Under the pieces are notes generated by a model that ran no database searches, had not been told where the DNA came from, and saw only the letters and a list, made by a program, of their open reading frames with translations. From Candidatus Zhuqueibacterota bacterium (lineage in GTDB: Bacteria; Zhuqueibacterota; Zhuqueibacteria; Thermofontimicrobiales; Thermofontimicrobiaceae): 64,000 nt of DNA. Shown here one piece after another: positions 30,318 to 62,091 of this stretch; the stretch's first letter is position 1; each line of letters opens with the position of its first letter. The stretch is from NCBI GenBank assembly GCA_049322915.1, contig JBMOPW010000007.1, forward strand, positions 96,001 to 160,000, written 5' to 3'. Both the position numbers and the translations under genes were made by a program.

Positions 30318-30403
30318 CAGCCATCGCCGGATCGCCGCTGACAGCGCATAGCGGGCGCATTGCCGTGATTAAAAACTGAATTTTTCAAAGGAGAATGGAA
30401 TCG

Positions 30404-31225: not shown

Positions 31226-31272
31226 TTCGAGGGAAGGTATGAAACGCCAGTCAGTACATCTGATTTTCAGGA

Positions 31273-33643: not shown

Positions 33644-33760
33644 ACCGGGAAGCGATGCAGCGCCAACCCGAACAGCGTTGTGAAAATGGATAGCTGCCGG
33701 GCCCGGATGCGGTTTTATTTCCTATGAAAAAAATGAAACACACATCATAAACAGGAGCAC

Positions 33761-36637: not shown

Positions 36638-36692
36638 TCATTTTTCCGCTGATGACCGACGTGAATTACTAACATTTTTCAAGAGAACTACG

Positions 36693-38702: not shown

Positions 38703-38711
38703 GAGACGACA

Positions 38712-40700: not shown

Positions 40701-40792
40701 TTGAAGCTGTGCTGCAAGCAGTGGTATGACTGGAAAATTAGTGATAAGTTCGAAATGAGGTGTCTGGTTTTCGAATCCCGGAGGCTAACGAA

Positions 40793-43777: not shown

Positions 43778-44326
43778 CTACATCTCCAGGACGAATTTTC
43801 TATCGACTCCGTCATGAATCGCCTTTTGAAGAATGCGTTCCAGCCGTCCCTTGACTTCTACAATAACGAGTTCCTGCGGCTCCAGCGAAATGATGTAAAC
43901 CGACTCCAGCCGGTCCCTGCGGATTTGGGTGAATACCCATGCGGCGCCGTTTCGTTCGTTCGCTTTCACGACCGACTCATATCCGAGATGAGAGAGTTTT
44001 TCGCTGATCTGCTTCGGAATTTTGAGCGCCCGGGTGGGATCGATATCATGCAGTTTATACACGCCGATCTGGACATTTCGGATGTCCCGCAGATAATCAA
44101 CGACCTCCCGGTCGGCATCCGTCATCGATACCACCATTTTCCCCAACGAAATCAGACCTGAGTTGAACTGCATCTGGAACTCAGTGTCAACATCAACATT
44201 GCCCAAATCGGAGAGTATAGCATTCCTGGTCGTCCGAAAATCACGGCTGACGAATACGCAGCCAGGCAATAGCCCGGCCATTAAGATAAATAGCAGCATT
44301 ACAGACAGGCATCGTTTTTTCATCAC
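43778..44326 (-). CDS. DUF4252-like lipoprotein
   Basis: Lipobox LPGC; similar to the adjacent paralog (VIVEVKGRL). Confidence 0.65.
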   Translation of the reverse strand: MMKKRCLSVMLLFILMAGLLPGCVFVSRDFRTTRNAILSDLGNVDVDTEFQMQFNSGLISLGKMVVSMTDADREVVDYLRDIRNVQIGVYKLHDIDPTRALKIPKQISEKLSHLGYESVVKANERNGAAWVFTQIRRDRLESVYIISLEPQELVIVEVKGRLERILQKAIHDGVDRKFVLEM

Positions 44327-44345
44327 AGTTATCTCCTGCTCGATA

Positions 44346-44909
44346 TCAATAGTCGGCGTTCAAATTTTCAAGATGATCGATATCGAATTTATGACCAATT
44401 TTTTCCACCGATTCCCAGTCGAGTTCGCCGACGATATTGATGAATACGGCTTCATCGTCGTCATCCACAGCCATGATGACCAGACCATCGATGCGGTTTT
44501 CCCTGGTGTTTTTCACAAAGACATTGACGCGCTCATCGCGTTTCGTGACGCGAACGATTTTTTCCCACTTGTCGCCTTCGAGTTTCGATTCCATCTTTTT
44601 GATGCTGTTATGCAAGATGTTCAGGTCAGAATTTTCAACGGAGAACGTGTTGATGCGTATCAGTAAAAGTTTGCCCAGCACGCGCGACAGGCTCCTGTCC
44701 TCTTCATGGGCGACGTTGGCGACGAATTTCAGAATAGGGCCTTTCATGGTTACTTCGACGCTTTCTTCGGCATTCACCGGAAATTTGATCTCACTGAAAT
44801 CCACGTAGCCGGGGTGTTTCCGAATTTCATCATCCTGGCCGACCACGACGCCGGATGTTATCAGACATAGCGCCAGAATACTCAGCCAAATATAAATTGC
44901 TCTTATCAT
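44346..44909 (-). CDS. DUF4252 family secreted protein
   Basis: ATG after GGAGGT; HPGYVDF, WEKIVRV, GLVIM..EAVFINIVG. Confidence 0.75.
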   Translation of the reverse strand: MIRAIYIWLSILALCLITSGVVVGQDDEIRKHPGYVDFSEIKFPVNAEESVEVTMKGPILKFVANVAHEEDRSLSRVLGKLLLIRINTFSVENSDLNILHNSIKKMESKLEGDKWEKIVRVTKRDERVNVFVKNTRENRIDGLVIMAVDDDDEAVFINIVGELDWESVEKIGHKFDIDHLENLNADY

Positions 44910-45068
44910 TGCTACCTCCACGTTATGGATGTACGAATTCATGATTACGGTGGCACTTGAAACTCGAGTTTCTGTCAGGTAAACGTGTGAGTCAAGGAAA
45001 ATGTTACAGCGACAAAATTATAATTGCGCCGTATCTGAAAAAAGTATCCGCTCAATATGAGATGGAAA

Positions 45069-45378: not shown

Positions 45379-46221
45379 TCAGATCATACCCTTTTCGCGC
45401 AGCATGATGTTCACAATGTCGATCTGGTATTTCACGCGCTTCTCCAACGGCAACTGTTTGCAGGTCTCTACGGTGAACGCGGGAATCTGGAAGAACTTGC
45501 CGGCCGACCACGCCGCGCTCAGTTCGATGGGGCTTTCGATCACAGAAAATTGCTCCATGCCGGCCGGAATATCGGCATTGATCTGGTCAAGCACGACCAT
45601 GGCCAGCCATGTCGCTTCCTCATTGATCGTGTAAATGAGAGTCTGGCCCAGACCGTGATAGGAGCCGTCCTTTTCGCGCGATTGCAGATGGAACACCGGG
45701 CTTTCGTGCAAATCCAGAAACAGCGACACACGGTGTTCCCTGATCAACTCGGTGATTGCATAGGCCATCTGCTCCATGGGCAGTCCATCCTTTATGCCCG
45801 GGTAGCAGCGATTCAGATTGCCGAGTTCGATATCCATGCCGTCCGGCACAGGGATTCGCCTCTCGGACAGAGAATCGGCCACGCGATTCGTTTCCGGAAT
45901 GATGAAAATTTCTCCCGACTTAATCGGTGCCTCAGTGAATTGCCGCAGCAGGCAATGGGCCGCCTCAAATCCAGCCGGCTCATTGCCATGGGTCCCGCCG
46001 AGTATCATCACCACCGGCCCGTCGGTTTCCCCTTTAAAATGGAACAGCGGCGTTTCGTATGGCGTGCCTTTCATCAAGTAATCGATGAGATGCGCATTGG
46101 GACTCCAGAATTGCTGATGGATCTCCCTTGCCTGGTTTGATAAATAATCGCCCGAAGTGGCGGCGCACTGGATGAGGCATCCAAGTAACAGAACAACGAT
46201 AGACCGTGTGAGTTTTCTCAT
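45379..46221 (-). CDS. Succinylglutamate desuccinylase/aspartoacylase (AstE/AspA, M14-like) family protein, exported
   Basis: Signal/lipoprotein peptide; GGTHGNE, NLNRCYPG, DLHES, FTVET. Confidence 0.85.
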   Translation of the reverse strand: MRKLTRSIVVLLLGCLIQCAATSGDYLSNQAREIHQQFWSPNAHLIDYLMKGTPYETPLFHFKGETDGPVVMILGGTHGNEPAGFEAAHCLLRQFTEAPIKSGEIFIIPETNRVADSLSERRIPVPDGMDIELGNLNRCYPGIKDGLPMEQMAYAITELIREHRVSLFLDLHESPVFHLQSREKDGSYHGLGQTLIYTINEEATWLAMVVLDQINADIPAGMEQFSVIESPIELSAAWSAGKFFQIPAFTVETCKQLPLEKRVKYQIDIVNIMLREKGMI

Positions 46222-46305
46222 ATTCCTGCCTGTATTTTGTTGTCCCGCTTCGATGGATCGAACGGGTGACTTTGACATGGGTTGAACCTGATTTCGGGAA
46301 CGATT

Positions 46306-47874
46306 CTATTTGATCACCTGCAACTTCAGAGCCTGGCGAAATTGCCGGGAGCCGTCTGCAGGCGTTGCTTCCAGTTGAAAAATATATATGCCGGAACAAA
46401 GCGTTCCTGCTGACCACGGAAAAATATGCTGGCCGGCGTCTAAATTCCGACCGAGGATGGCCGCGACTTGCTCTCCCAGCGCGTTGTAAATTGTGAACTG
46501 CACCAGGCTGGACTTCGGCAGGACAAATCTGAAATTGGTGCTGGCATTGAACGGATTGGGATAATTCTGCAGCAGCGCAAAGTCGTCCGGGGTGGTGCTA
46601 ATGGCAACCGGTTCGACCGAAGAAATCATGCCCTGGTAAATGTCCATCAGAGCAGTGAGCGCATAGCCGGCCAGATCCGATTCGGTGAGCAGCATGTCGC
46701 TCACATTGAGACCTGCGGATCGCCAGGCGTTGAGCTTCTGCTCGGCCTCATCGAAAATATAATCTTCGGCTACGAAGCTCTTTGTCCACACGCCGCCGCC
46801 GAGGCCGTCCCGCAATTTGTATGAATCCAGATACGAACTGTTTTCGGCGTAGTCGAATAGCAATTCCCTGATGTTCAGCGCGACGTCGCACAGCGGCGCA
46901 TTGCTGGTTCCCCTGGCGGCAGTTGGCACCTGTCCCACCGGCCAGTAGGGCACAACAATGGCGGCAGCAGGCTGCCCCAACATGGTCCACATGGTCGTCA
47001 ATTTTGCGGATTCCTGCGGCTGCACCCCGTGAAAGACAACCGCCGAAGTGGATGTAGTGCGGCAAATGCTGACGTCGCAGTAAATATAGCCGTAAGGTCG
47101 ATCGGGAATCCATGTTCTGGGATAGGGCACCGGGACGGGGTCGCTGTCAAAATCCGAAAAGTCCCGCATCTGATAGCGGAGAATGCTGTGATAGGTCAGA
47201 CTGTCGCCGCTGTGAAAATCGCTCATGAGTTGTTCCTGCCGCCAATAACGTTCGATGCTGTAGATTCCCGAATGAATGCCTTCCGCCGCTGCGCCATTGA
47301 ATGCGAAATTGGTCCGGAGCACATAGCCATTCGGCGCCTGGATGGAATCATTGGCATCAAATTTCCAGTACTCGGACCCGGCTGTTTCGAATATGGCGGC
47401 AGCGCCGGTGCTGTCGATGACGCCAAAATTGGAATGCGTGGTTCGGCCGGTGATATTGGTTTCGTCTAGATAGTTCTGAAATTCATCGACCGTGGCGCAT
47501 GTACCAAGCGCGTTGGTCATGACAGTACCGTTGCCGGGGCCACTGCTGCCTCCCGGCAAATCCGATGAATCGGAATTCAGAATGGCCAGGCCTTTTTCGT
47601 TGACGCCCATCCACGCTGTGGAACCGCCCACAGTGTTGACAGCGATGTATTTATATTTTTTGGATGTTGAATAAATAATCCCGTTGTTTCGCTCCGATGT
47701 ATCCCTCGTTTTCCAGAGCAGGGGACGTCCATCCGGCGTGGCTTTGCCGGAGGCGACGCCAATCGTGCATTCGTCGTTCCCTGTCAGGGAAGTCAGAGAC
47801 GCTGCATTCACATATCCGAATTGAAATACAATAAGCCATGCGAACAGAATACGTGTCAGTTTTTTCAAATTCAT
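46306..47874 (-). CDS. C45/Ntn-hydrolase family peptidase with T9SS C-terminal domain
   Basis: Signal peptide then E-CTIG (Cys nucleophile), DGRPLLWKTRD, GVNEKGL, RTNF. C-terminal QNYPNPFN...SGIY. Confidence 0.8.
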   Translation of the reverse strand: MNLKKLTRILFAWLIVFQFGYVNAASLTSLTGNDECTIGVASGKATPDGRPLLWKTRDTSERNNGIIYSTSKKYKYIAVNTVGGSTAWMGVNEKGLAILNSDSSDLPGGSSGPGNGTVMTNALGTCATVDEFQNYLDETNITGRTTHSNFGVIDSTGAAAIFETAGSEYWKFDANDSIQAPNGYVLRTNFAFNGAAAEGIHSGIYSIERYWRQEQLMSDFHSGDSLTYHSILRYQMRDFSDFDSDPVPVPYPRTWIPDRPYGYIYCDVSICRTTSTSAVVFHGVQPQESAKLTTMWTMLGQPAAAIVVPYWPVGQVPTAARGTSNAPLCDVALNIRELLFDYAENSSYLDSYKLRDGLGGGVWTKSFVAEDYIFDEAEQKLNAWRSAGLNVSDMLLTESDLAGYALTALMDIYQGMISSVEPVAISTTPDDFALLQNYPNPFNASTNFRFVLPKSSLVQFTIYNALGEQVAAILGRNLDAGQHIFPWSAGTLCSGIYIFQLEATPADGSRQFRQALKLQVIK

Positions 47875-47887
47875 TGTTGACCTCAGA

Positions 47888-49573
47888 TTAGTAACCCAGA
47901 GCGACTCCGGGGCGTCTTGGATCGGATGATCCGGTGAATGTTCCAGTGTTTGAATCGATCATAATGAGCTGCACTCCGCCGAAGAACAAATCCATCTCCC
48001 CGTATTGTTCGATGGAATGCCCCATTGCTTTCAGATGTTGCAGCAATGCCTCATCGAAACGGGATTCCACCGCGATGGCAGTGCCCGATTTCTGGCAATA
48101 AAATCGCGGGGCGGCATTAGCGAGGTGCGGATCTTTATCAAAATCGATCAGGTTACAAATGACCTCCACGAGCGTGGATAAAATGCGTCCCGCGCCGGGG
48201 GTACCCAGGACAATGGCCAGTTTGTCATCCCTGAATAAAATGGACGGTGCGATGGTGGTTCTGGGCTGTTTGCCCGGCTGGGCCCGGTTGAGCGAATCGC
48301 CTTCGAAGAAAGTGGTCATCCCGTTGTTCAGCAAAAATCCGCACACGCTGATGCCTGAGCCCCAGAAGTGATTGAGCGTCTGGGTGAGCGACACGGCATT
48401 GCCGCGGGCATCCACGATGGAAATGTGGGTCGTGCTGCCCTCTTTGTCGTACGGCGCCGGCGCTGACGTTTTCAAAAATCTGGAAATGTCGCCGGCCGGC
48501 ATACTTTCGGGATGAACCGGGTGGGCTTTGGCCATGTCGATGGTTTCGAATCGGGCTCGGGCAAAGGATTTGGAAATGAGAATATCGTCGTAAGAAGGGT
48601 CGAATTTCGGATCGCCCAGATAGTGCAAACGGTCGACGGAAGCGAGCTTCATCGCTTCGGCCATCACATGGAATGACGCGGGACTGGTGACGAAATCACC
48701 GGACTGGCGCAGATCGGTGAATTCGAGAATGTTGAGCGTTTCGAGGACAGTGATACCGGAGTGAGGCGGCGGCGAAGAAAAGATATCATAGCCGCGATAC
48801 GTTCCGTGCAGCGGGGGCACCTCGCGCACCTGATAGTTCTCCAAATCCGCAGCGCGCAATCCACCGCCGGTGCGAATCATGACTGCCTCGATGGAGTCGG
48901 CGATTTCACCCCGATAAAATACGTCCGGTCCCTCGCTGGCCAATTTCTGCAATGTGGCTACCAGCGGGGCATTGCGGAGCCGATGGCCAGGTTCCGGCGG
49001 AAAATCATTCACCAGATAAGTCGTTCTGGTACGGGGATCCAGCAGCAGTTTGTCGTACGAATCGAGAATGATCTGGTGAAAGGCGCCATCGACTACAATG
49101 CCGTCCCTGATCTTTTCGATGACCAGTAAAACCAACTCGTTCCACGGGATGGCGCCGTACTTGCTCAGCGCATAATGCAGCCCGGCCACGGTCCCCGGCA
49201 CGAGGACAGATCGGGCGCTGCTGCTTTCATGCCGGGCATCGAATCCATCGGCCACCTTCTCCGGCGCGCAGGCGTAATAGTTGATGTAGGTCAGGGTATC
49301 CTGTTCACTCAGATAAACCAGCATGGCTCCGCCGCCGCCTAATCCCGATGCATGCGGCTCCACCGCGCCGATGACCAGCGCCGACGCGACGGCCGCATCA
49401 ACGGCGTTCCCGCCGGATTTCAGGACTTCCAGCCCCAATTCAGATGCCAGCGGATGAGCGGTCACCACCATGCCGGAAGTTCCGGACGTATCGCTGCAAA
49501 ACAACTCGCCATGAGAGAGCAGCGCGAGGAAAAGGATCGCTATCAAAACAGACAGATTTTTTTTCATCATCAA
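47888..49573 (-). CDS. ggt: Gamma-glutamyltransferase, exported
   Basis: GGNAVDAAVA, EPHASGLGGG, S-TTHISIVD (Thr nucleophile), TQTLN, GTPG, SDPRR. Confidence 0.93.
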   Translation of the reverse strand: MMMKKNLSVLIAILFLALLSHGELFCSDTSGTSGMVVTAHPLASELGLEVLKSGGNAVDAAVASALVIGAVEPHASGLGGGGAMLVYLSEQDTLTYINYYACAPEKVADGFDARHESSSARSVLVPGTVAGLHYALSKYGAIPWNELVLLVIEKIRDGIVVDGAFHQIILDSYDKLLLDPRTRTTYLVNDFPPEPGHRLRNAPLVATLQKLASEGPDVFYRGEIADSIEAVMIRTGGGLRAADLENYQVREVPPLHGTYRGYDIFSSPPPHSGITVLETLNILEFTDLRQSGDFVTSPASFHVMAEAMKLASVDRLHYLGDPKFDPSYDDILISKSFARARFETIDMAKAHPVHPESMPAGDISRFLKTSAPAPYDKEGSTTHISIVDARGNAVSLTQTLNHFWGSGISVCGFLLNNGMTTFFEGDSLNRAQPGKQPRTTIAPSILFRDDKLAIVLGTPGAGRILSTLVEVICNLIDFDKDPHLANAAPRFYCQKSGTAIAVESRFDEALLQHLKAMGHSIEQYGEMDLFFGGVQLIMIDSNTGTFTGSSDPRRPGVALGY

Positions 49574-49627
49574 TGAGCCGTTTCAATGAATTGAACCCGG
49601 AAAACAGCGCGGTCCGCAATCAGTGCA

Positions 49628-50191
49628 TTATTTTTCTTCAGAAAAAATGTTCTTCAACTCGGCGCCGGCGTCCATGATTTTTTCGATATATTTCAGCGGG
49701 ATTTTCTTTTCCCTGGCAATGCCGCTGAAAAAATTGTCATCGTCGCCGCTCTGAACCGCGATGATATAGTCGGCGTTTTCAGCCGATAGTTTATTGAATT
49801 CATCCGACAACTTCCCGCGCCGTGCTTTGCCGCCGACATGCATGGTGATTATTTTCATGTTGGCAGCGCGCGCCGCCTTTATCAACGCATCCACGCGTTC
49901 CAACTCCTGGTTTTTATCGATCTTGGCGGCGCCCAATCCCTTGGTGCTGCCCCCGGCGACCAGGATGAGCGCTGCATTGCCCTTCAGTACATCCGGCGTG
50001 GCCAATTTGTCGAATGCAAAGGCGATGTTGTTCTTCTGGGCCAGGATTTTCACCATGAGCGCATCGGCGCTTTGACCGGCAGCCGTGATGAGCACCGGCG
50101 GTTTCGCTTTAAAATCCGAAGCATGCGCCAGACAAACGGCCATGAAAAGAATGAAAATCATCATACCATAAATTCGAAATACTTTCATCAT
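49628..50191 (-). CDS. DUF6305-like exported protein
   Basis: Signal peptide; PVLITAAGQSAD, GGSTKGLGAA, HVGGKARRG..SD. Confidence 0.75.
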   Translation of the reverse strand: MMKVFRIYGMMIFILFMAVCLAHASDFKAKPPVLITAAGQSADALMVKILAQKNNIAFAFDKLATPDVLKGNAALILVAGGSTKGLGAAKIDKNQELERVDALIKAARAANMKIITMHVGGKARRGKLSDEFNKLSAENADYIIAVQSGDDDNFFSGIAREKKIPLKYIEKIMDAGAELKNIFSEEK

Positions 50192-50525
50192 AATCTCCTG
50201 CATGTTAGTAGTAAATTATTCATGTCGAAACGATAATTCGCCAAAGACGCGATGATTGACGTGATCGCCGGGTCGAAGTTTTTGCGTTGCGCATGTTGAT
50301 TCCAGCGTGGCCCCGGTCTGGTTCTGACGCTAAAACGCTTGTGCCCTGCGCGACCCACATCATCACGTTGTGAATTCACTTTTTGTTCAGATCGATTTTT
50401 ATAAAAAACCCAGGTCATGATTCGACCTGTGGCAGTCATTTCACAATGTCCGTGCATTGGGGCAGCGTGTTTCTCTCTAAACGCCTGAAGCAGAGAGCGC
50501 GCCGGCTGTAATTATTTTTTTTACC

Positions 50526-51644
50526 TCAATTCAAATACGCGCCCAATCCGGCTGCCTGCAATTCGAAATAGTCCGGGATGTTTTGGACGACGATGGACTC
50601 CCCAGGATGGTACTCATTCCAGACCTGAAAGATCGTCTGAAGCGCGGCCAAATGTCGTCCGACGCGCTCCACCATGGGAATGCCCTCGGCCGGATACTCC
50701 ACCTCCAGCAGTCCGTGCTGAGCCGCTTCGTGATAAAAGCGGTCCTTGCCGCTCAGAACGACATCCTCTGTCAACCGGCCGTGATAGCGGCCCTGCACCG
50801 TATTGGCCGATTCCATGAGAATTGCCGGGATATTCAGAAAATCGCCCCATTCCCGGTGCGACAGGCCGTGGAAATTCTGCGGCGATGGTTCAATGTTAAA
50901 ATTTAATCCCTGCATTTGCAGATTGATGATAGCCTCGCCGGCCAAATCCGACGCCAGGGGATGCGCGACCACCGCGTTGATGACCGGGTACTCCGGCGAT
51001 GCCTCGTGTAAATCAAAGCCCAGGTCGACCTGTTCCTGTTTCATCAATTCCATGATAGCGAAAGCGATTTTCTCGGTCATGGCGCCATTGGGCCGGCCGG
51101 GATAGGATCGATTCAGATTGCGCGTTTCACTGCCGGAGAGCTTTTGGCCGGAGGGATAATGGAGATACACCTCAGGGTCTGGCCACTGATCCACGGGATT
51201 GGTGCAGCGCGAGCCGAAACGAAACCAGCGCTCCCCGTTCTTCCCATGAATGGTGAAACGCTGGGGATTCCCTTCCTGGGGATCGTTGTGGGTGAAGGCG
51301 CTGTTATTGGCGCGCGGAATGATGATGAATTGCCCCTGATCCACAGCGCAATTTTCAATCAGAAACAGAGCCGATAAAAAGCCAGCCGGCTCGTTGGGAT
51401 GAGTCCCACCCAACAGCAGCACTGTGGCGCCGGCGGTTTTCCCGCGGAGCAAATAGACTTCAGTGTCGCCGTGGCTGTTTTTCAGATCGGGAAAATAGTC
51501 GCTCAGCATCCGCTTCTCCGTGACGCCTGGGCCGGGAAAGATCGGCTCCGGCTGACGCATTTTCAAAAATGATTTGGCAGAGACAACCGTGATGCCGATG
51601 CTGATCGCCAGAAAGAGGAGAGCTAAAAGTGAGTGGCGTTTCAT
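50526..51644 (-). CDS. Succinylglutamate desuccinylase/aspartoacylase family protein
   Basis: N-terminal TM; GGTHPNE, RNLNRSYPG, DLHEASPEYP, HREWGD. Confidence 0.85.
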   Translation of the reverse strand: MKRHSLLALLFLAISIGITVVSAKSFLKMRQPEPIFPGPGVTEKRMLSDYFPDLKNSHGDTEVYLLRGKTAGATVLLLGGTHPNEPAGFLSALFLIENCAVDQGQFIIIPRANNSAFTHNDPQEGNPQRFTIHGKNGERWFRFGSRCTNPVDQWPDPEVYLHYPSGQKLSGSETRNLNRSYPGRPNGAMTEKIAFAIMELMKQEQVDLGFDLHEASPEYPVINAVVAHPLASDLAGEAIINLQMQGLNFNIEPSPQNFHGLSHREWGDFLNIPAILMESANTVQGRYHGRLTEDVVLSGKDRFYHEAAQHGLLEVEYPAEGIPMVERVGRHLAALQTIFQVWNEYHPGESIVVQNIPDYFELQAAGLGAYLN

Positions 51645-51652
51645 CGAATTCC

Positions 51653-51796
51653 CTATTTGATTAATAGTATGCGCAGCAGAAATGGAATTATCAGGATGAT
51701 GTGCGTCAGTTGATCTTTCCAGTTTTTCTCGTGAAATAAATCAACGATGGTGAGCACGAGAAACAGGGCTGTGATGAACAGATACACGATTTTCAT
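51653..51796 (-). CDS. 47-aa two-helix membrane protein (absent from ORF track)
   Basis: MKIVYLFITALFLVLTIVDLFHEKNWKDQLTHIILIIPFLLRILLIK. It fills the gap between the permease and the desuccinylase on the same strand. Confidence 0.75.
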   Translation of the reverse strand: MKIVYLFITALFLVLTIVDLFHEKNWKDQLTHIILIIPFLLRILLIK

Positions 51797-51811
51797 GGTT
51801 CAAAACCTTTT

Positions 51812-53089
51812 TCAAAAGACCAGGAATTTTGCTAACGGATTCGCGAACAGAATCATGCCAATCCCGTACAGGGCTATCAGCACAGCGTAGGGCAGGCAGA
51901 CTTTGAGTATCTTGAAATAGCTTGGTTCACCGACAACCTGGGCTGCGAAAATGCCTGCCAATGCTGTGGGCGGCATCAGATCGCCGAGGCTGGCGATGAG
52001 CGTGAGCCCCGAGGCAACGATGATTTCGTTTCTGCCCAGCAACGCCAGCAGGAAGGGCACGCCCAAAACGTAAGACGCCCCGTACGAAGAGATCGCGCCA
52101 AACAACGGCAGGCTGAACATGATACCGACAAAGAGCCAGAACGAGGGTAATTTCACGGCATTCACAATCAGATAGCCGCGCACCCCGGTCAGGCTCATGA
52201 CCTGAATGAACATGCCGATGCCGATCAGAATTCCCATCACCGGCAGCGCATTGTGAACCGCTTTGCGGGCGACTGTGACGAAGTTGAAGTCGCGGCCGGA
52301 CCGATAGGCGGCCAGGCTGCCGATGAAGAAAATGAGCGGCATGCCCAGCGAGGTGTAATCGTTCGGGAAAATGCGGCTCACCAGCATGAGCACGATGACG
52401 ATGCCGATTGGAATGAACAGTCGCGCGCTGCGATGATCCAACTGGAATTCTGACATTTCAATCTTTATTTTTTCGATGTCGACGGTTCTGACGTAGCTGT
52501 AGCCCAGAAACAGCGTGGTCACAATGGCCAATGGCAGGGTTGCAAACAGAAGCGGCAGATCAAATCCAATATACGGCATGTCCACGCCGCCGCCGATGAT
52601 CATGACCGGCACATTGATGGGCGGGGCGATCATCCCGTACAACGCGGCCATAGCGATGATGGCGCCGACTTTGACGCGGGGCAAGCCCAGATGCAGCAGC
52701 GCCGGAGCGACAATGGCGCCGGTGGTCAGTACGCAGGCTGACGAAAGTCCGGTGATCATGCCGGGGAACATGATGAACAGGGTGATCAGCGACAGCATCC
52801 AGAACGGCCTGTGATTCAGATGAATGATGATGAGGCGGCTGATTTCGCCTAATGCCCCGGTCTCTTTGATGATCTCCATAAATACCATAGCGGAGGCAAT
52901 GATCAGAATCGCATCGAGGTACGCGAACGATCCTTCGACGAGATGACGCAGGGGTAAACCATACCCGCCGGCCAGGGCGCCAATGATGGATGAGATTGCG
53001 AGCGATACACCAATGGGAAATTTTCCTAAGAAAACGGCAAGAGCAAAAGCAGCGATCATGAGAATGAGCAGGTAAAATTCTAACGGCAT
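51812..53089 (-). CDS. TRAP/ion-transporter superfamily large permease (DctM-like)
   Basis: About 11-12 TM helices; FPGMITG, GMIAPPINVP, GDLMPPT. Confidence 0.85.
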   Translation of the reverse strand: MPLEFYLLILMIAAFALAVFLGKFPIGVSLAISSIIGALAGGYGLPLRHLVEGSFAYLDAILIIASAMVFMEIIKETGALGEISRLIIIHLNHRPFWMLSLITLFIMFPGMITGLSSACVLTTGAIVAPALLHLGLPRVKVGAIIAMAALYGMIAPPINVPVMIIGGGVDMPYIGFDLPLLFATLPLAIVTTLFLGYSYVRTVDIEKIKIEMSEFQLDHRSARLFIPIGIVIVLMLVSRIFPNDYTSLGMPLIFFIGSLAAYRSGRDFNFVTVARKAVHNALPVMGILIGIGMFIQVMSLTGVRGYLIVNAVKLPSFWLFVGIMFSLPLFGAISSYGASYVLGVPFLLALLGRNEIIVASGLTLIASLGDLMPPTALAGIFAAQVVGEPSYFKILKVCLPYAVLIALYGIGMILFANPLAKFLVF

Positions 53090-53436
53090 CAGATCTCCAT
53101 CTTAACCTGTTTTACGTTGCTTGAAATGATTCATGGATTTTTAGGATAGCCAGATGATTGAATCATCAAAACACGCAGCGATGCAACCCGTGCGACTCTT
53201 GCCGCTGATTGAAACGGACAGCGCACGGTGCTTCAGCGATCTCGATGAAATCCAAATCTGAAAAGATTAAGTATACAATGAATCTGTGAAAAATGCAAGA
53301 AAAATTTCGATATAGCTGGCAGTGGATTTTCCAGGTGCGCTGTGACGAGTTACACCTGTATCGCTGCATATTTTTGCGCGTCCCGGCGCCGGTGAAATTA
53401 TGTCGTGCAGGGAGCGATCCGGCGCAAAGTTTTTTC

Positions 53437-53465
53437 TTGACATTTATTTAATATTTGATTACAAT
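53437..53465 (+). promoter_or_regulatory. Sigma70-type promoter of the TonB/T9SS module
   Basis: TTGACA-N17-TACAAT. Confidence 0.75.
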
Positions 53466-53623
53466 TACTTGTGCAGCAAAACAAAGTTATCGATTCTCTC
53501 AATTCACATCCCTTGCCTTAATCAAAACAATTCCCTATCTATCCCGAAGGAGGTGGTTGCCTCAGACGAACAATTCCACAATTCACCATATCCATAACAA
53601 CAATTTTATCAGGAGAACTCAAA

Positions 53624-55177
53624 ATGGCAAAGAGAGTTACAGTGTTTTTGATGAGTGTTATCTTTATCATGACGGCAGCTTTGGCGTTGGCTCAAGTTTC
53701 CCCTTCAAAAATAGCTCCGACAGATAATACCTATGGTATCAATTACAACAATGGGAGCTGCATCGATCGCGCTCCCAATGGTCAGGTGCTTTGTGTTTGG
53801 GCGACCGGCGACGCGTACAACAAACAGGTATTGTGGTCAATCTATGATAATGATTTTCTATTCTGGTGGACCCCGCAGGTGCTCGGGAATGGAAATGGGG
53901 ATCGCACTACACCGACTGTCATCGCGGATGATATGAATCATTTCCACGCCACATGGAGCGATAATTACACACTCATGTATTCTCAGTTCGATGGCACAAA
54001 CTGGACAACACCCACAGTCGTCTGGAATGATACCGTCGATGCCAATAAAAATAGCATCGTCATTGGCAGCGATGGGAAAATCTGGATTGCCTGGAGCACG
54101 TATCGGCAGGCGGATAATGTGAACGAGTGGCTGATGATCTGCAACAGCACCGATAACGGCCTGACCTGGAACCCTCCTGACACACTGGCAAAAGATATGC
54201 ACCCCGGAATCATCTCGTCCTATTTTTGCGTGCCTCATCTGGCAGCCGGACCCGATGGTAAAATTGCTGTCGCCTATCGGGAGAAGGACACCAATATCAG
54301 CGCCTTCTATCAGGTCTTTTATCAGGAATACAGCGGTGGCACATGGACGGATGCAGCTATGATTACGGATTATGCGCTCACTGTCGATTGCTATCAGGCA
54401 TCGATCGAATATGATTCCAAAGGAAGATTGCATTGCGCATTTTACACGGATGAAGTGGACTGGCCCAGCGTGGATCTGGGACAAATTTATTACACCTGGA
54501 AAGATGAGGGCGGACTCTGGTCTGCTCCTGTGGCCATTTCTCATGTAGCAGATGGAAAAGCCGATTATCCTGCCATTGCCATTGGCGATAATGACGCGCT
54601 CTACGTGACGTATTTGCAAAATAGTCCCGTCTCCGCCAGTGGCAAACTTCAGGTTTTTGCCGTCACGTCCGATGACCGAGGCACCACATGGAGCGATTCC
54701 GCTCGAATCAGCGACGGCACCGTGAACATGGATTTGCGCTCTGTCAGCATTGGCAAACATCCCCGAGCGACCGGCGCGAATTTCCAGGGCGGCGCTGATC
54801 TGTGCTGGATAGAACCGGATGTTTCAGAGCCGGATGGTTACTCCCTGCACTACGGCCGCATTCCCTGGGTGGAAACGACGGGCGTTGCATCGAATAACAA
54901 CCCGGATGTCCCGACGACATTCCGCTTGGGACAAAATTACCCCAATCCATTCAATCCCACGACCACCATTCAATTCGATCTGAAAACTGCCGGACATGTC
55001 GAGCTGACAGTTTACTCGCTCACCGGCCAGCAAGTCGCACGACTGGCGAATGAAGCAATGCCTGCCGGGTATCATCGCGTGCAGTTCGATGCGACCGGGT
55101 TCAGTTCCGGAATTTATATGTACAAACTAACGACGGATAATTTCACTGCGACAAGGAAAATGTTGTTGCTGCAATAG
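53624..55177 (+). CDS. Secreted BNR/Asp-box (beta-propeller-like) protein with T9SS C-terminal domain
   Basis: Signal peptide; STDNGLTW and SDDRGTTW Asp-boxes; QNYPNPFNP...SSGIYMY CTD. Confidence 0.8.
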   Translation: MAKRVTVFLMSVIFIMTAALALAQVSPSKIAPTDNTYGINYNNGSCIDRAPNGQVLCVWATGDAYNKQVLWSIYDNDFLFWWTPQVLGNGNGDRTTPTVIADDMNHFHATWSDNYTLMYSQFDGTNWTTPTVVWNDTVDANKNSIVIGSDGKIWIAWSTYRQADNVNEWLMICNSTDNGLTWNPPDTLAKDMHPGIISSYFCVPHLAAGPDGKIAVAYREKDTNISAFYQVFYQEYSGGTWTDAAMITDYALTVDCYQASIEYDSKGRLHCAFYTDEVDWPSVDLGQIYYTWKDEGGLWSAPVAISHVADGKADYPAIAIGDNDALYVTYLQNSPVSASGKLQVFAVTSDDRGTTWSDSARISDGTVNMDLRSVSIGKHPRATGANFQGGADLCWIEPDVSEPDGYSLHYGRIPWVETTGVASNNNPDVPTTFRLGQNYPNPFNPTTTIQFDLKTAGHVELTVYSLTGQQVARLANEAMPAGYHRVQFDATGFSSGIYMYKLTTDNFTATRKMLLLQ

Positions 55178-55185
55178 TCTGAGCC

Positions 55186-55221
55186 AGAAAGGCATGGGGA
55201 TCATCTCCATGCCTTTCTTTT
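55186..55221 (+). terminator. Intrinsic terminator/attenuator between the T9SS protein and TonB receptor
   Basis: AGAAAGGCATGG-GGATCATCT-CCATGCCTTTCTTTTT. Confidence 0.75.
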
Positions 55222-55256
55222 TGAAATAAACGGCCAGACCTTTAGGAGGAGATGAA

Positions 55257-58061: not shown

Positions 58062-58086
58062 TGTGAATCTAATGAAGGAACGTGCA

Positions 58087-61044
58087 ATGGTAACGATAAA
58101 GCAAAAAATCATTCTTGCCTGCGCGCTATGTCTGGGATTTTCGCTGTACGCACAGGACAGAAGAAATAGCGACATCGATGGCGTGCCGGATAAGCAGACC
58201 CTGCGCAAGCCAACGGCTCGCGTGGATGAGGCCATCGGCGTGATGAATAAAGGGCAGCTATGCAATTTGACGATGAATTACGGCCAGATCACCGACACCC
58301 GGCTGGAAGATCCCGGCAATCGTCCCACCGACGAATTCTATAATTTCAGATACCCGAAAGTGAAACCCTACGGCTCCATGGTGGACGATTTCGCCCTGTG
58401 TTTTGCTGTGGCGAAAAATTCTAAAAACGGGGACAATGGCAATTTCATCGATGGCTACACGGCCAACGGCAACGAGGACTGGATTGCCAAAGATGGCTCA
58501 CTGGGTAAAACTCACTATGATGGCAGCGGCGAAGATCCAATGCTGACGTATGTGGATGGCACCACGCCGTATTTGGCGCACAGTGATCTTCCGCAAACCT
58601 GGCCTATGGATGCAAACGGCGATCGGTTCTGGCCCGGGTATTTTCGGCGCAATCCGAGCACCGGCGAGACGTTCACCGGGGAGTTCGCCTCGGATCGCGA
58701 TGTATATAGCGTTTTCACTGATGCCAACAACGTGCAGGGCAATTCTCTGGGACTGGAAATTGAGCAGATGGCCTATTGCTACGGCCGCGTCTATGCTGAG
58801 GATTTTCAGTTCTATGAATTTTTCGTGCATAATACCAGCGCGGATACGATCAAAGACGCCTGGATCGGTCTGTATCAGGATCCTGATTGCGGCGATTACG
58901 GCGAAGAAATATTGATCGTGCCGGCAGGATATTCTTTCTCCGATCCCTATCCGGTCGTCATGCAGCGGGACTTCACCGGCGATATTGGCGGAGCGACGTT
59001 TGCCAATTCCGTGGGGCGATACGAAGATATGGATTTCGGCATTGTGATTCTGGAAACGCCCAAGAATGTCGGGGTCACTGATTTTCATTACTTCACCGAC
59101 GCCGGCCCCACATTTGATGATGAGCTCTGGCCCATCATCAGCAGCAAGAAGGACGATCCGGATATTGCCATGTCGGTCGCGACCTATTTTCACGGGGATA
59201 ATCCGAAATTGGATGAAGTCGCGCTGATCCAGCAACCGCAGGATTGGGTGTACATGGTTGCCAGCGGCCCATTTGATCTGGCGCCGGGCGAAGTTGTGAA
59301 ATACTCCATTGGCGTGGTCGTGGGCGACACTGACGCGGATTTCATCAATAACGTGGAAATGGCGGTTCAGATGTTCGAAAAAGGTTTTGTCGGACCGTCA
59401 GCGCCGCCAGGCCCGGAGGTGGCTGCTGTGGCTGGCGATGAAAAAATCACGCTGTACTGGGATAATTCATCGGAGTCCAAAGCTGATCCGCTCACAGGCG
59501 AGATCGATTTTGAAGGATACAAGATCTATCGCAGCCAGGATGGCGGCGCCACATGGGGCACGCCGGTGACCAATGCTCATGGCGATGTCATTGGATACGT
59601 CCCCATTGCCCAGTTCGATATCGATAACACCATTGAGGGGTATGATCCAATCAGTCCGTCGAACTATCTGGGGGCCAACACCGGATTGCAGTACATTTTT
59701 GTCGATGAAAATGTGATCAATGGGATTGAGTATTCCTATACAATCACGGCGTACGACCGCGGTGATAAAGAAGCCAATATCCCTTCGTTCGAGACGGCGA
59801 AAGGCACGGGCGCGGCGGAGAAGCATTTTGTGACCTGCACACCCCGGCCGGATCCGCTGGCCTACGTCTCTGCGTATCCCATGCAATTGAATCAGATCTC
59901 CGGCAAAGGTCGGGGCAAGGTGACCATCAGGATTGTGGATTCGGAAAAATATGGAGCTTATAAAGCGGAGAATGGCAATGCATCGGATCCGGTTTTCAAA
60001 ATTGATTTCAGCGGCTTCCCGGCAGCATCGTTCTCGGTGACGGATTCCACCAATGATGGCGCGGTGTTGGGCAGCAGCTTGCCATTGAATACTGAGATTT
60101 TCCCGATTTTAAATCAGGCCGGCATTCAAGTGGCCATCGAAACAATCAGCCGGATCGGCGGTATTCAGAGCATCACCGATGGCGAGGGCGTCAATGTGAT
60201 GGGATCGGGCAAAGCCGACGCCAGCGAATCGTGGTATGTTCAGGCGTCAGAGATTCCGCCGGCGTCTCTGGAAGCGCGATCGAACAGCTATGAAATACGC
60301 TTTACGGCTCAGGGTTCAGTTGCCTACACAAAAGGCCGGGACCCGGTGGCGTACATGACAGTGCCGTTCGAAGTCTGGCGAGTGCTGCCGGATACGGCTC
60401 AGGTCATCTGCGAATTTGAGGATAAGAACAACAACCGCACTTTCGACGCATCGGAATTTCTATTCATCGGCAATGTCGCCTACCCGACTGTGACGCCCAA
60501 TACGGGCGATTCCATCAAAGTCAATTTCCCGTCGGATTTCCCGCTGCAAGTCAATTTCGTGCCGGTACCGGTCGATTCGGCGCATCCATTGGGTGGCAGC
60601 ATGCCGGTCGCAGGGCAGAAAGCGATCCTCTACACCAACAGCGGATTTTCAGATGGAAGCGGTTTTCCGGGGACAAGTCAGTCCGGACGCGGCGACCAGT
60701 TCATTTTCACGATACAGGAAGATGCCGTGGACCAAAGTCGTGAGGCAGGTCTGCTGAACGATATCCGGGTTGTGCCCAATCCCTACGTGGCTGTTTCTTT
60801 ATTCGATCCGCGGCAGAATGTCCATAGCCTCAAATTCATGTACCTGCCGGCAGAGTGCAAAATTACCATCTATTCGTTGGCTGGCGTGAAAGTGACGGAA
60901 TTGGATCACAACGACGGCGCCGGCATTGAGAACTGGAATTTGACAAATGAATTCGGCCAGGACATTTCGTTTGGCGTGTATGTGTATGTCGTGGAAACAA
61001 CCAGTGGCGATACGCACGTTGGGAAATTTGCCATCATTAAGTAG
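58087..61044 (+). CDS. Large secreted protein with FN3-like region and VVPNPY-type C-terminal sorting domain
   Basis: Signal peptide; GPFDLAPG, GDEKITLYWD, DFEGYKIYRS, YSYTITAYD; IRVVPNPY...LP..C.I.IYSLAG...GVYVYVV...GKFAIIK. Confidence 0.8.
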   Translation: MVTIKQKIILACALCLGFSLYAQDRRNSDIDGVPDKQTLRKPTARVDEAIGVMNKGQLCNLTMNYGQITDTRLEDPGNRPTDEFYNFRYPKVKPYGSMVDDFALCFAVAKNSKNGDNGNFIDGYTANGNEDWIAKDGSLGKTHYDGSGEDPMLTYVDGTTPYLAHSDLPQTWPMDANGDRFWPGYFRRNPSTGETFTGEFASDRDVYSVFTDANNVQGNSLGLEIEQMAYCYGRVYAEDFQFYEFFVHNTSADTIKDAWIGLYQDPDCGDYGEEILIVPAGYSFSDPYPVVMQRDFTGDIGGATFANSVGRYEDMDFGIVILETPKNVGVTDFHYFTDAGPTFDDELWPIISSKKDDPDIAMSVATYFHGDNPKLDEVALIQQPQDWVYMVASGPFDLAPGEVVKYSIGVVVGDTDADFINNVEMAVQMFEKGFVGPSAPPGPEVAAVAGDEKITLYWDNSSESKADPLTGEIDFEGYKIYRSQDGGATWGTPVTNAHGDVIGYVPIAQFDIDNTIEGYDPISPSNYLGANTGLQYIFVDENVINGIEYSYTITAYDRGDKEANIPSFETAKGTGAAEKHFVTCTPRPDPLAYVSAYPMQLNQISGKGRGKVTIRIVDSEKYGAYKAENGNASDPVFKIDFSGFPAASFSVTDSTNDGAVLGSSLPLNTEIFPILNQAGIQVAIETISRIGGIQSITDGEGVNVMGSGKADASESWYVQASEIPPASLEARSNSYEIRFTAQGSVAYTKGRDPVAYMTVPFEVWRVLPDTAQVICEFEDKNNNRTFDASEFLFIGNVAYPTVTPNTGDSIKVNFPSDFPLQVNFVPVPVDSAHPLGGSMPVAGQKAILYTNSGFSDGSGFPGTSQSGRGDQFIFTIQEDAVDQSREAGLLNDIRVVPNPYVAVSLFDPRQNVHSLKFMYLPAECKITIYSLAGVKVTELDHNDGAGIENWNLTNEFGQDISFGVYVYVVETTSGDTHVGKFAIIK

Positions 61045-61053
61045 GAGATAAAG

Positions 61054-62091
61054 ATGAAGAATAGAATACATGTCAGGATGCTTGGAATGCTCCTGGTTGT
61101 CGCGCTGATTGCAGGCAGTTCCCATGCAGAATCATTTCGCAAAGTGGGCACTTCTGCGGCGCAATTCCTGAAAATCGGAGTCGGCGCGAGAGCGCTTGCC
61201 CTGGGAGGCGCCTATGCCGGCATCGCCGACGACGCTGACGCATTGTACTGGAACCCGGCCGGCATCGTGCATGTCAACGCGATTAGCTGGACCGGCACCC
61301 ATACAAACTGGATCGCCGACGTGAAACATCAATTCACTGGACTGGTTGTGCCCATGGGAAGAGGCGCATCGTTGGGATTTTCCGCCACATTCGTCACTAT
61401 GGACAAAGTGGAAATCACCACCGAAAGCGAGCCCCGTGGCACCGGCTTTTACTGGGATGCCAACGACATCGCAGTGGGTCTGACCTATGCCCGCTGGATG
61501 ACGGATCGGATCGCTGTGGGTGTGACCGGAAAATATGTCTCGCAGAAAATCTGGAATGAAAGCGCATCGACGTTCGCCGTGGATGTGGGGACCTATTTGA
61601 ATACCGGCTACAAAGGAATTGTCATCGGTATGTGCTTTTCCAATTTTGGCGGCAATCTTCAATTGGCCGGCCGCGACCTGATTCGGGAATACGATTACAG
61701 CCCGGACAATTCGCTCAATACCGGCGTGGATACGCGAATGTTCACACAGCCCTGGCCTCTGCCCGTTAATTTCAGAGTGGGGATTTCCATGGAAGTCGTT
61801 GGCGCCGGGGATATGCTTTTGCCCTCCGAGAACAATCGCCTCACCCTGGCTGTGGACGGTAACCATCCCAATGACGACAGCGAGAAGCTCAATTTCGGCT
61901 TTGAATACAGTTGGAAAGAAATCCTGTTCACGCGCATCGGCTATGGTCTGGACTACGACCTGATGCAATTCAGCTATGGCCTCGGCCTGAAAATGAACAT
62001 CAGCGACGCTCGTTTCAGTTTCGACTATGCGCTGGCTCCGTACCAGGAACTGGGGACGATTCATTACTTCACCGTGGGTTTGAGTTTTTAG
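61054..62091 (+). CDS. PorV/PorQ-family outer-membrane beta-barrel
   Basis: AAQFLKIGVGARALALGGAY, LYWNPAG, FDYA, terminal Phe. Confidence 0.85.
   Translation: MKNRIHVRMLGMLLVVALIAGSSHAESFRKVGTSAAQFLKIGVGARALALGGAYAGIADDADALYWNPAGIVHVNAISWTGTHTNWIADVKHQFTGLVVPMGRGASLGFSATFVTMDKVEITTESEPRGTGFYWDANDIAVGLTYARWMTDRIAVGVTGKYVSQKIWNESASTFAVDVGTYLNTGYKGIVIGMCFSNFGGNLQLAGRDLIREYDYSPDNSLNTGVDTRMFTQPWPLPVNFRVGISMEVVGAGDMLLPSENNRLTLAVDGNHPNDDSEKLNFGFEYSWKEILFTRIGYGLDYDLMQFSYGLGLKMNISDARFSFDYALAPYQELGTIHYFTVGLSF

Follow-up and report, generated by a model that had tools for sequence, protein, structure and literature searches.

What could unite a permease and four predicted amide hydrolases with a TonB-dependent receptor and its outer-membrane partners, encoded back to back in a single bacterial locus? 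The locus in question spans positions 45379-62091 of the stretch of DNA analysed here (the window, 64 kb), which is contig C7:96001-160000 of a 6.25 Mb, 96% complete genome whose proteins have database relatives labelled candidate division KSB1. An earlier note on the window had read it as a system for utilising a gamma-glutamyl polymer such as poly-gamma-glutamate (PGA). Judged by its gene neighbourhoods, the cassette in the leftward arm, and with it the locus, belongs to the PGA system of these bacteria, and this link is well supported. The substrate is probably PGA or a PGA-like polymer. The gene content also leans towards a fuller reading, in which the locus would act from surface to cytoplasm in the manner of a polysaccharide utilisation locus (PUL), on a gamma-glutamyl polymer that is most probably PGA from the cell itself or its neighbours. 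Handles beginning with G, C and L denote genomes, contigs of the window genome and loci, respectively. In the list below, T9SS stands for type IX secretion system, CTD for C-terminal domain, Ntn for N-terminal nucleophile, GGT for gamma-glutamyltransferase and FCB for the Fibrobacteres-Chlorobi-Bacteroidetes group.

Organisation of the locus

45379..46278, minus strand: AstE2, a 299-aa AstE/AspA (M14-like) zinc hydrolase with a lipoprotein-like N-terminus (..LLLGC..); PF24827
46306..47874, minus strand: C45/AAT-type Ntn hydrolase, 522 aa, with a T9SS type A CTD; PF03417, TIGR04183
47888..49573, minus strand: exported GGT-family Ntn hydrolase, 561 aa; PF01019, TIGR00066
49628..50203, minus strand: DUF6305, exported, 191 aa, a single domain of ~160 aa; PF19823
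50411..50429, minus strand: terminator-like hairpin in the gap between AstE1 and DUF6305 (7 pairs and a T-run, by consensus scan)
50526..51644, minus strand: AstE1, a 372-aa membrane-anchored or exported AstE/AspA (M14-like) zinc hydrolase; PF24827
51653..51796, minus strand: 47-aa two-helix membrane peptide, conserved in alignment and without a family match
51812..53089, minus strand: DctM-like (ion-transporter superfamily) permease, 425 aa; PF06808
53437..53465, plus strand: sigma-70-like promoter TTGACA-17-TACAAT (11/12 consensus matches)
53624..55177, plus strand: BNR/Asp-box beta-propeller protein, 517 aa, with a T9SS type A CTD; BNR_2, Por_Secre_tail, TIGR04183
55257..58061, plus strand: TonB-dependent receptor, 934 aa, CarboxypepD_reg, Plug and barrel (Pfam)
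58087..61044, plus strand: exported protein of ~985 aa, an unnamed FCB family with a divergent T9SS type-A-like CTD (hhalign)
61054..62091, plus strand: PorV/PorQ-family outer-membrane barrel of the 14-strand type, 345 aa; NF033709

Every gene that the earlier note had named in either arm is present, and its outer coordinates are gene ends, 45379 being the stop of the last leftward gene and 62091 that of the PorV-like gene. The intergenic region common to both arms, put at about 530 bp in that note, measures 534 bp (53090-53623). The order given for the leftward genes did not hold; read from 53089, it is permease, 47-aa peptide, AstE1, DUF6305, GGT, C45 and AstE2. N-terminal export signals were judged by eye from the sequences, with no program score. 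An 89-aa open reading frame (ORF) at 50188-50457 was rejected as a gene and treated as non-coding, since it has no family match and no counterpart in the same-genus locus.

A conserved cassette beside poly-gamma-glutamate synthesis genes

The DUF6305 alignment was scanned against one genome per species, which gave 590 confirmed stretches; the best 80 were analysed, and the 42 of these with at least 5 kb on both sides form the well-flanked set. Among the sources of the best 80 are KSB1, Marinimicrobia, Calditrichota, Ignavibacteriota, Atribacterota, Thermotogae, Spirochaetes and Synergistetes, as well as Fusobacterium (including F. nucleatum), Clostridium tetanomorphum, C. symbiosum, Fusibacter and Peptoniphilus. 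Within the well-flanked set DUF6305 is accompanied by the permease in 40 loci, AstE1 in 41, GGT in all 42, and by all three in 40. Because of this constancy, and because the 47-aa peptide trails the permease from KSB1 to Clostridium, gene order defines GGT, DUF6305, permease, 47-aa peptide and AstE1 as a conserved five-gene cassette. Its three soluble proteins all bear export signals, which in clostridia are lipoprotein signals. The core of the leftward arm is thus present as the earlier note described, but it is not peculiar to this locus, being widespread in bacteria that include F. nucleatum and glutamate-fermenting clostridia.

Among the KSB1 genomes DUF6305 was found in 36 of 167, and in the more distant KSB1 families only DUF6305, permease and AstE1 stay together. 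A DUF4252 gene pair (43778-44942) and a gene for a fused 2-keto-3-deoxy-6-phosphogluconate aldolase/PfkB kinase (41858-43606) flank the cassette in the window, as they do in G123 and G129. GGT, C45 and AstE2 are absent between DUF6305 and the DUF4252 pair of G123; since all three are missing together, they act as a single insertable unit.

In F. nucleatum SB042 and C. tetanomorphum DSM 4474, PgsB is encoded directly 3′ of the cassette (481.4 and 370.8 bits, respectively, against TIGR04012, cut-off 222.7), followed by PgsC (TIGR04011) and the ‘poly-gamma-glutamate system protein’ TIGR04332. F. nucleatum is reported as a PGA producer in a passage of PMC3815933 that cites Candela et al. (2009). 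By tblastn, 33 of the 42 well-flanked loci have at least one Pgs-system gene within 9 kb (PgsB 26, PgsC 26, TIGR04332 33), among them the KSB1 loci of G122, G118 and distant families. The same pattern is seen genome by genome in KSB1, where TIGR04332 is present in 35 of the 167 genomes: 34 hold both DUF6305 and TIGR04332, two hold DUF6305 alone (85% and 74% complete), one holds TIGR04332 alone and 130 hold neither. No KSB1 genome of at least 90% completeness has DUF6305 without TIGR04332, and the per-family tallies of the two are identical in 10 of the 11 families that have either. Adjacency and co-occurrence together support the guess, made in the earlier note, that PGA is the substrate.

The window genome encodes its own PgsB (239.8 bits, cut-off 222.7), PgsC (106.1, cut-off 96.45) and TIGR04332 (324.2, cut-off 100) on contig C28. 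Because of these genes, and because of the lack of DUF6305 carriers without TIGR04332 among the more complete KSB1 genomes, ‘turnover or recapture’ describes the predicted process better than ‘utilisation’. The PGA link of the earlier note stands, while its picture of a forager gives way to one in which polymer from the cell or its kin would be turned over or recaptured.

The pgs genes on C28 (C28:50001-68740, L143) have as neighbours an M19 dipeptidase, an 897-aa Sortilin/BNR protein, an S9 peptidase, an M28-like aminopeptidase, a GAF-SpoIIE regulator, an IS200-type transposase and a 913-aa M14 carboxypeptidase. Seven loci have TIGR04332 within or beside the cassette and no PgsB or PgsC detected within 9 kb; it lies between GGT and permease in six of them (L079, L080, L083, L095, L099 and L127) and after DUF6305 in the seventh (L090). 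By its position, TIGR04332 may be tied in function more to the cassette than to the synthase. The protein has no Pfam domain and no sequence relative in the PDB, and a literature search on it found no relevant paper.

Linkage of the two arms

The ~985-aa protein of the rightward arm was searched against all 167 KSB1 genomes, and the DNA flanking its matches was checked by tblastn with the window proteins. Orthologues (49-80% identity) occur in nine other genomes. The permease/AstE1 cassette adjoins the outer-membrane module in seven of these (G124, G122, G127, G133, G135, G137 and G118), in all of which the BNR gene stands 5′ of the receptor gene, and the remaining two loci (G126 and G125) stop at contig ends. 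Four gene orders were seen: divergent as in the window, module first on one strand, permease first on one strand, and divergent with GGT first. Paralogous modules of at most 44% identity in G121, G062, G122 and on contig C12 of the window genome have no cassette nearby. Beyond KSB1, the triad of receptor, CTD protein and PorV-like barrel abuts the permease in loci of the Marinimicrobia type (L070, L075 and L076), in Calditrichaceae (L072 and L073) and in Melioribacteraceae (L077 and L078). The co-occurrence of the arms in related genomes, on which the earlier note had hung its interpretation, is therefore observed both in KSB1 and in other FCB phyla.

A maximum-likelihood tree was built from 37 receptors, of which 13 are linked to the cassette, two are contig-cut and 22 are unlinked (18 of these being paralogues from the window genome). 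One clade (SH-aLRT 99) unites 12 of the 13 linked receptors with both contig-cut ones and contains none of the 22 unlinked. Receptors of the Marinimicrobia type (L075 and L076; one record is labelled Lentisphaeria) nest within those of KSB1, and a 12-gene order is common to both, which suggests that the complete locus has been transferred laterally between FCB phyla. On the strength of this synteny, the two arms belong together functionally.

A GGT variant

The GGT of the locus matches its family over its full length (PF01019, 432.6 bits, cut-off 27; TIGR00066, 384.5 bits, cut-off 357.85). Its nucleophile is placed at Thr381 (motif ‘TTH’), the residue at which the small chains in the PDB begin and which is kept in the orthologues. 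The small subunit aligns end to end with the lid-less GGTs of Bacillus subtilis and B. licheniformis and has no lid loop. In the passages of PMC8062742 cited here, lid-less Bacillus GGTs are described as having an open cleft suited to PGA, and Asp433 of Escherichia coli GGT (Asp445 in B. subtilis) as binding the alpha-amino group of the donor; E. coli GGT D433N gains glutaryl-7-aminocephalosporanic acid acylase activity. B. subtilis GGT trims PGA from its N-terminal end, according to a passage of PMC4497714.

The position of Asp433/Asp445 is occupied by Thr in the window GGT (‘LNNGMTTFF’ vs ‘LNNELTDFD’) and by T, S, V or A in locus-type orthologues, a subtype that is kept in FCB loci. The canonical paralogue on contig C12 and most cassette GGTs elsewhere keep ‘NNEMDDF...PLSSM’, and some FCB loci hold both types. 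Replacement of the Asp fits cleavage at internal, N-acylated glutamyl residues; a GGT without need for a free alpha-amino group could cut PGA there. The enzyme belongs to the GGT family, as the earlier note said, but is not a typical GGT.

By bit score the window GGT is not closer to CapD, a PGA transpeptidase and depolymerase, than to hydrolytic GGTs: its large part scores 278.6 bits against E. coli GGT and 152.5 against CapD, and its small part 103.5 against B. subtilis GGT and 77.9 against CapD. The idea that the second GGT, on C12, is part of the nearest paralogous triad was rejected, as unrelated genes and a distance of ~12 kb separate the two. A third GGT subtype, with Asn at the Asp433 position (‘NNEM[KGV]NF’, ‘NNEWANF’), was seen in L101, L103, L118, L125, L135 and L139, from hosts that include Thermotogae, a spirochaete and Halanaerobiales, and is a natural counterpart of D433N.

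Zinc hydrolases and the C45 enzyme

Both zinc hydrolases belong to the AstE/AspA group (PF24827, cut-off 25), AstE2 with 59.6 bits and a further 28 bits against Peptidase_M99, and AstE1 with 35.3 bits. Neither is an equivalog of AstE, aspartoacylase or DoeB, the best scores being 38 and 31.7 bits against TIGR02994 (cut-off 402.7). Residues H82, E85, N178, R179, D211, H213, E278 and R327 of AstE1 are invariant in 18 of 18 aligned AstE sequences, as are the HxxE, NR, DxH and catalytic Glu columns of AstE2 in the same alignment. From M14 enzymes and aspartoacylase we take these to be the zinc ligands (HxxE...H), the carboxylate-binding pair (NR) and the catalytic Glu. AstE2 orthologues come after the C45 gene in G124, G122, G135, G137, G128 and G129. 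A known PGA hydrolase, PghP, is described in part of PMC4497714 as a zinc enzyme related to carboxypeptidase A.

The C45 hydrolase scores 28.2 bits against PF03417 (above the cut-off of 23.2) and 60.6 bits against NF040521 (below the cut-off of 85), and its T9SS type A CTD scores 30.6 bits against TIGR04183 (cut-off 23). The predicted nucleophile is Cys36, right after the signal/pro region; the motif ‘EEC-TIGVASG..DGRPLLWKTRD’ is found in 10 of 12 aligned sequences, and two ‘b’-type paralogues have Ser-Thr instead. The C45 gene occurs only in loci of FCB phyla, 7 of the 80 (thresholds 150 bits and 30% coverage), and the hydrolase with its CTD was seen only where the outer-membrane module is.

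A putative TRAP-like set of import genes

The permease matches PF06808 over its full length (40.7 bits, cut-off 23.8) and, in the ESM Atlas, DctM clusters with feature scores of 0.99 and TM-scores of 0.81-0.97; it has no sequence relative in the PDB. We propose it as an importer of glutamate or gamma-glutamyl peptides. The peptide encoded after it has no Pfam or NCBIfam match and aligns across KSB1, Marinimicrobia, Melioribacteraceae, Fusobacterium, Clostridium, Halanaerobiales and Atribacterota, with Y5, E23, I37, L41, R42 and K47 invariant and its gene always after the permease.

DUF6305 scores 173.1 bits against PF19823 (cut-off 25). Its invariant elements in the alignment are GQS, GxSxKGxGA, E, R, H..G...RG and D, and an AlphaFold2 model (mean pLDDT 93.3) shows a single Rossmann-like domain with the invariant polar and basic residues at the C-terminal strand ends. 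A profile search of the PDB gave nothing significant, and a literature search found no paper on DUF6305. An SGNH-type esterase was considered and rejected, the SGNH and other Foldseek matches being weak (TM 0.3-0.5), and the structural comparisons pointed to no particular family. Since its clostridial homologues bear a lipoprotein signal and it always stands in a cassette with the DctM-like permease, DUF6305 is proposed as the solute-binding, or catalytic, partner of that permease. The set is not a canonical tripartite ATP-independent periplasmic (TRAP) transporter, in that neither the 47-aa peptide nor DUF6305 has a match to a DctQ or DctP model, and the score against the fused-TRAP model is 20.6 bits (cut-off 320.65).

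The outer-membrane module as a multi-copy scaffold

The BNR protein (BNR_2, 46.7 bits; Por_Secre_tail, 41.1; TIGR04183, 46.2, cut-off 23) has no sequence relative in the PDB and is proposed to be a surface binding protein. The receptor reaches 91.7 bits against the SusC/RagA model TIGR04056, below the cut-off of 368.25, and none of the 12 locus proteins has a SusD-family match; the locus is therefore not a PUL of the SusC/SusD type. The ~985-aa protein has no Pfam, NCBIfam or PDB match and no direct match to a CTD model; its C-terminal domain matches type A CTDs by hhalign (94%, E 1.4e-7), and look-alike ESM Atlas clusters are named T9SS sorting-domain proteins. The Atlas record begins at query residue 5, and the protein may start at an ATG at 58072 instead of 58087. 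The barrel scores 197.4 bits against NF033709 (cut-off 90) and falls below the equivalog cut-offs of PorQ (84.6 vs 220), PorV (59.4 vs 250) and PorV2 (70.9 vs 325); by these scores it is a family member and not the secretion-system PorV or PorQ itself. PorZ and PorU of Porphyromonas gingivalis retain their CTD and are kept on the cell surface by PorQ and PorV (a passage of PMC5562754), which provides a precedent for the proposed anchoring, by analogy, of the CTD of the preceding ~985-aa protein on the barrel beside the receptor.

The genome encodes a T9SS (SprA, 712.8 bits; two PorU, 868.7 and 818.5 bits), dozens of CTD proteins and 30 PorV-family genes above the NF033709 cut-off. There are ~20 paralogues of the ~985-aa protein, nearly all adjoining a PorV-family gene and a receptor gene, and 16 complete triads with three variants were counted. 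In 16 regions, 109 flanking ORFs of at least 180 aa (58 and 51) were scanned. The neighbours are glycoside hydrolases (GH) in many cases, namely two GH10 with a sodium:solute symporter; GH38; an amylase with a carbohydrate-binding module (CBM), CBM20, and LacI; GH16 with a CBM9-CTD protein and a symporter; and GH94 with CBM9, a sugar ABC system and LacI. Others are a tricorn-like S41 protease, and RpiR with M20, S51 and a DcuC carrier. Because triads sit with such varied catabolic enzymes, inner-membrane symporters and regulators, we read the triad as the PUL-like scaffold of this organism and the studied locus as its gamma-glutamyl version. The PUL-like logic that the earlier note saw in the two arms is retained, with the difference that the rightward arm as such is a generic scaffold (30 PorV-family genes, ~16 triads) in which the linked receptor forms a dedicated subfamily.

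One triad, on C16:203001-223000 (L150), is preceded by genes for RpiR, an M20 peptidase, Peptidase_S51 (cyanophycinase/dipeptidase E family), the C4-dicarboxylate carrier DcuC and a CTD protein. This is possibly another PUL-like locus for a substrate other than carbohydrate, such as peptides that contain Asp or the products of cyanophycin. The nearest paralogous triad, on C12:1-17600 (L051), lies with RpiR, a 990-aa LTD/BNR CTD protein, an alpha/beta hydrolase, a CTD protein, a DASS Na+/sulfate-type symporter and an M20 peptidase. Here too the theme is ‘amidase plus anion carrier’. A literature search found no paper joining PorV with TonB-dependent uptake in KSB1 or related FCB phyla.

Regulation and neighbouring genes

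In an alignment of the spacer with the same-genus intergenic region, no conserved block is longer than the putative sigma-70-like promoter at 53437-53465, a pattern match that would serve the rightward arm. The hairpin at 50411-50429, likewise a pattern match, may split the leftward arm into two transcription units; the AstE1 and DUF6305 units of G135 and G137 are 6 kb apart, matching its position. A second conserved block of the spacer, 53545-53560 (‘GAAGGAGGTG’), lies ~70 nt upstream of the BNR start codon and could be a leader ORF or an element of the 5′ untranslated region. The BNR start codon has its own Shine-Dalgarno-like site, and short ORFs after the block are not conserved between the two genomes.

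No regulator gene lies within 45379-62091. In F. nucleatum, C. symbiosum and Fusibacter the cassette is immediately preceded by genes for a histidine kinase and a response regulator, and in G129, G135 and G137 NtrC-like response regulators are encoded near it (L110, L136, L089, L034, L036 and L037 for both groups together). An Rfam scan of the 64-kb window found no riboswitch, its sole match being a tRNA at 19751-19823.

Elsewhere in the window, positions 21510-39503 encode on the plus strand an epimerase, a GFO/IDH/MocA oxidoreductase, Amidohydro_2, a heparinase II/III-like protein, a class III aminotransferase, two xylose-isomerase-like TIM barrels, a URO-D-like protein, a FAD_binding_2 protein, a short-chain dehydrogenase/reductase, and an 881-aa FMN reductase of the old yellow enzyme type fused to Fer4_20 and Pyr_redox_2. 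To judge from these families, the cluster probably serves uronate or amino-sugar catabolism unrelated to the PGA locus. Neighbouring DUF362 and DUF6599 genes lie at 39741-41707.

A proposed route for the polymer and its alternatives

In the fuller reading, three CTD proteins would leave the cell through the T9SS. Two of them are the C45 Ntn hydrolase and the BNR propeller; the third, the ~985-aa protein, would be held on its dedicated PorV/PorQ-like barrel beside the TonB-dependent receptor. These surface proteins would bind and cut the polymer, and the receptor would import the fragments. In the periplasm, the lid-less GGT variant and the two AstE-type zinc hydrolases would release glutamate or small gamma-glutamyl peptides, which DUF6305, the 47-aa peptide and the DctM-like permease, as a three-part TRAP-like importer, would carry into the cell. 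The inward direction of flux and the specificity given to each enzyme are predictions of this scheme, as are the pairing of DUF6305 with the permease and the anchoring of the CTD on the barrel.

Several observations weigh against this reading or against the evidence for it. The window contains no PgsB, PgsC or TIGR04332, the synthase genes lying on C28 of the same genome. The co-occurrence of DUF6305 and TIGR04332 was counted over kin that are not independent, so the table overstates the independent events and is to be taken as a pattern, not a statistic; being nearly one to one, with no clear consumer-only KSB1 genome seen, it fits maturation or anchoring of the polymer as well as recapture. 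Characterised AstE/AspA enzymes cleave small N-acyl amino acids, not polymers, and a comparison of AstE1, AstE2, C45, DUF6305 and TIGR04332 with PHROGs gave no phage PGA hydrolase family, with two matches at chance level. The window GGT lacks the Asp that canonical GGTs use for gamma-glutamyl donors, and Thr-Thr stands where the PLSSM motif has Ser-Ser; it could therefore act on a different substrate, for example one with a glutaryl-type acyl group. The fold of DUF6305 is generic (Foldseek TM 0.3-0.5, VIA Z up to 9.9, to ribokinase-like and GT-B domains), and the linked Calditrichaceae receptor falls outside the clade of the others, in its sister clade.

The near one-to-one count (34 genomes with both, two and one with either alone) is what would be expected if cassette and module were accessories of biosynthesis that mature, anchor, trim or display the cell's own PGA, with GGT as a CapD-like transpeptidase, the zinc hydrolases setting chain length, the permease supplying glutamate and the triad holding or passing the polymer. 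Marinimicrobia loci with triad, cassette and pgsB-pgsC-TIGR04332 on one strand agree with this, as do the loci with TIGR04332 inside the cassette, between GGT and permease, and the role of CapD, a GGT-family protein that anchors PGA in Bacillus anthracis (passages of PMC4497714 and PMC8062742). The GGT of the window, however, is nearer to hydrolytic GGTs than to CapD in both of its parts, the window genome and G124 keep the import module with the cassette, unlinked from the pgs genes, and sister triads accompany catabolic enzymes and symporters. TonB-dependent receptors and DctM-type permeases are, moreover, importers. We consider such a role in biosynthesis or maturation rather unlikely.

Somewhat less probable again is a general scavenging role for small gamma-glutamyl or N-acyl amino-acid compounds, such as glutathione, gamma-glutamyl peptides, stem peptides of peptidoglycan and N-acyl-Glu/Asp, in which case the adjacency to pgs genes would reflect no more than a shared glutamate economy. 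Most cassettes do carry a canonical GGT (‘NNEMDDF...PLSSM’), of the kind that acts on donors like glutathione; AstE2 has a match to Peptidase_M99 and a clostridial AstE2-like protein a weak one to MpaA (29.9 bits); classical amino-acid fermenters are among the carriers; and two sister triad loci pair peptidases with dicarboxylate-type carriers. A scavenger would nevertheless leave unexplained the adjacency of PgsB, PgsC or TIGR04332 in 33 of 42 loci and their co-occurrence genome by genome, would have no need of three T9SS surface proteins and a dedicated receptor subfamily for small solutes, and would not account for the restriction of the C45 hydrolase with CTD to loci with the outer-membrane module. 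That the arms are mere chance neighbours with unrelated functions is strongly disfavoured and very improbable: cassettes of distant KSB1 families and of all non-FCB phyla have no receptor nearby, and the triad family is multi-copy and mobile within the genome, yet adjacency has been kept in seven of the nine orthologue-bearing genomes through four rearrangements and recurs in three further FCB lineages, and the linked receptors are monophyletic save one.

PGA is a capsule, biofilm and storage polymer, and to our knowledge only a handful of PGA-degrading enzymes is known, nearly all from Bacillus and its phages. The five-gene cassette, which accompanies PGA synthesis genes in many phyla, provides a testable role for DUF6305, the AstE subfamily and the small peptide. 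The analysis also suggests that PGA may be cycled, that is made, cut and re-imported, by uncultured bacteria in sediments and biofilms. The organisation of uptake in KSB1 and its relatives around the triad likewise offers a handle on polymer capture in FCB bacteria that lack SusD. It is tentatively suggested, as a joint claim that we regard as possible though doubtful, that the locus is the first PUL-like utilisation or recapture locus for a polyamide (PGA), that its module represents a SusD-free class of capture module, and that its permease set is a minimal TRAP-like tripartite importer. If the second part is true, FCB-wide modules would consist of a TonB-dependent transporter and, beside it, a ~1000-aa protein that a dedicated PorQ-like barrel holds by its T9SS-type CTD. 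If the third is true, DUF6305 would be a new single-domain binding protein and the 47-aa peptide would replace DctQ, in an importer serving the PgsB/PgsC/TIGR04332 systems of many anaerobes, including F. nucleatum.

Comparison with known systems

One close parallel is the turnover of PGA in Bacillus by secreted GGT, PgdS, CapD and phage PghP. In both cases a GGT-family hydrolase and a carboxypeptidase-A-like zinc hydrolase stand with, or co-occur with, pgsB and pgsC, and the window GGT is lid-less as the Bacillus GGTs are. DUF6305, the DctM-like permease and the 47-aa peptide, however, are absent from the Bacillus operons. The zinc enzymes of the present locus are of the AstE/AspA type and not of the PghP or NlpC/P60 PgdS type (no PHROG or Pfam match), the partner of the synthase is TIGR04332 instead of PgsA, the GGT lacks the alpha-amino-binding Asp, and an outer-membrane import module has been added.

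With TRAP transporters (DctP-DctQ-DctM) the cassette shares a DctM-like large permease, a small membrane part and an exported or lipoprotein soluble part in one conserved order. The small part, however, is 47 aa long with two helices and matches no DctQ model, and the soluble part is a single Rossmann-like domain of ~160 aa, not a two-lobed DctP or TAXI protein.

The locus as a whole resembles the PULs of Bacteroidota in combining a surface enzyme and binding proteins with a TonB-dependent transporter, periplasmic exo-enzymes and an inner-membrane importer, on a multi-copy scaffold with variable cargo. It differs from them in having no SusD, whose place is taken by a ~1000-aa CTD protein and a PorV/PorQ-like barrel, and in its predicted substrate, a polyamide and not a glycan. 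The pairing of a PorV/PorQ-family barrel with a CTD surface protein recalls PorQ-PorZ and PorV-PorU of P. gingivalis; the putative pair described here is present ~16 times per genome, always after a receptor gene, and lies among nutrient-use genes, outside the secretion machinery.

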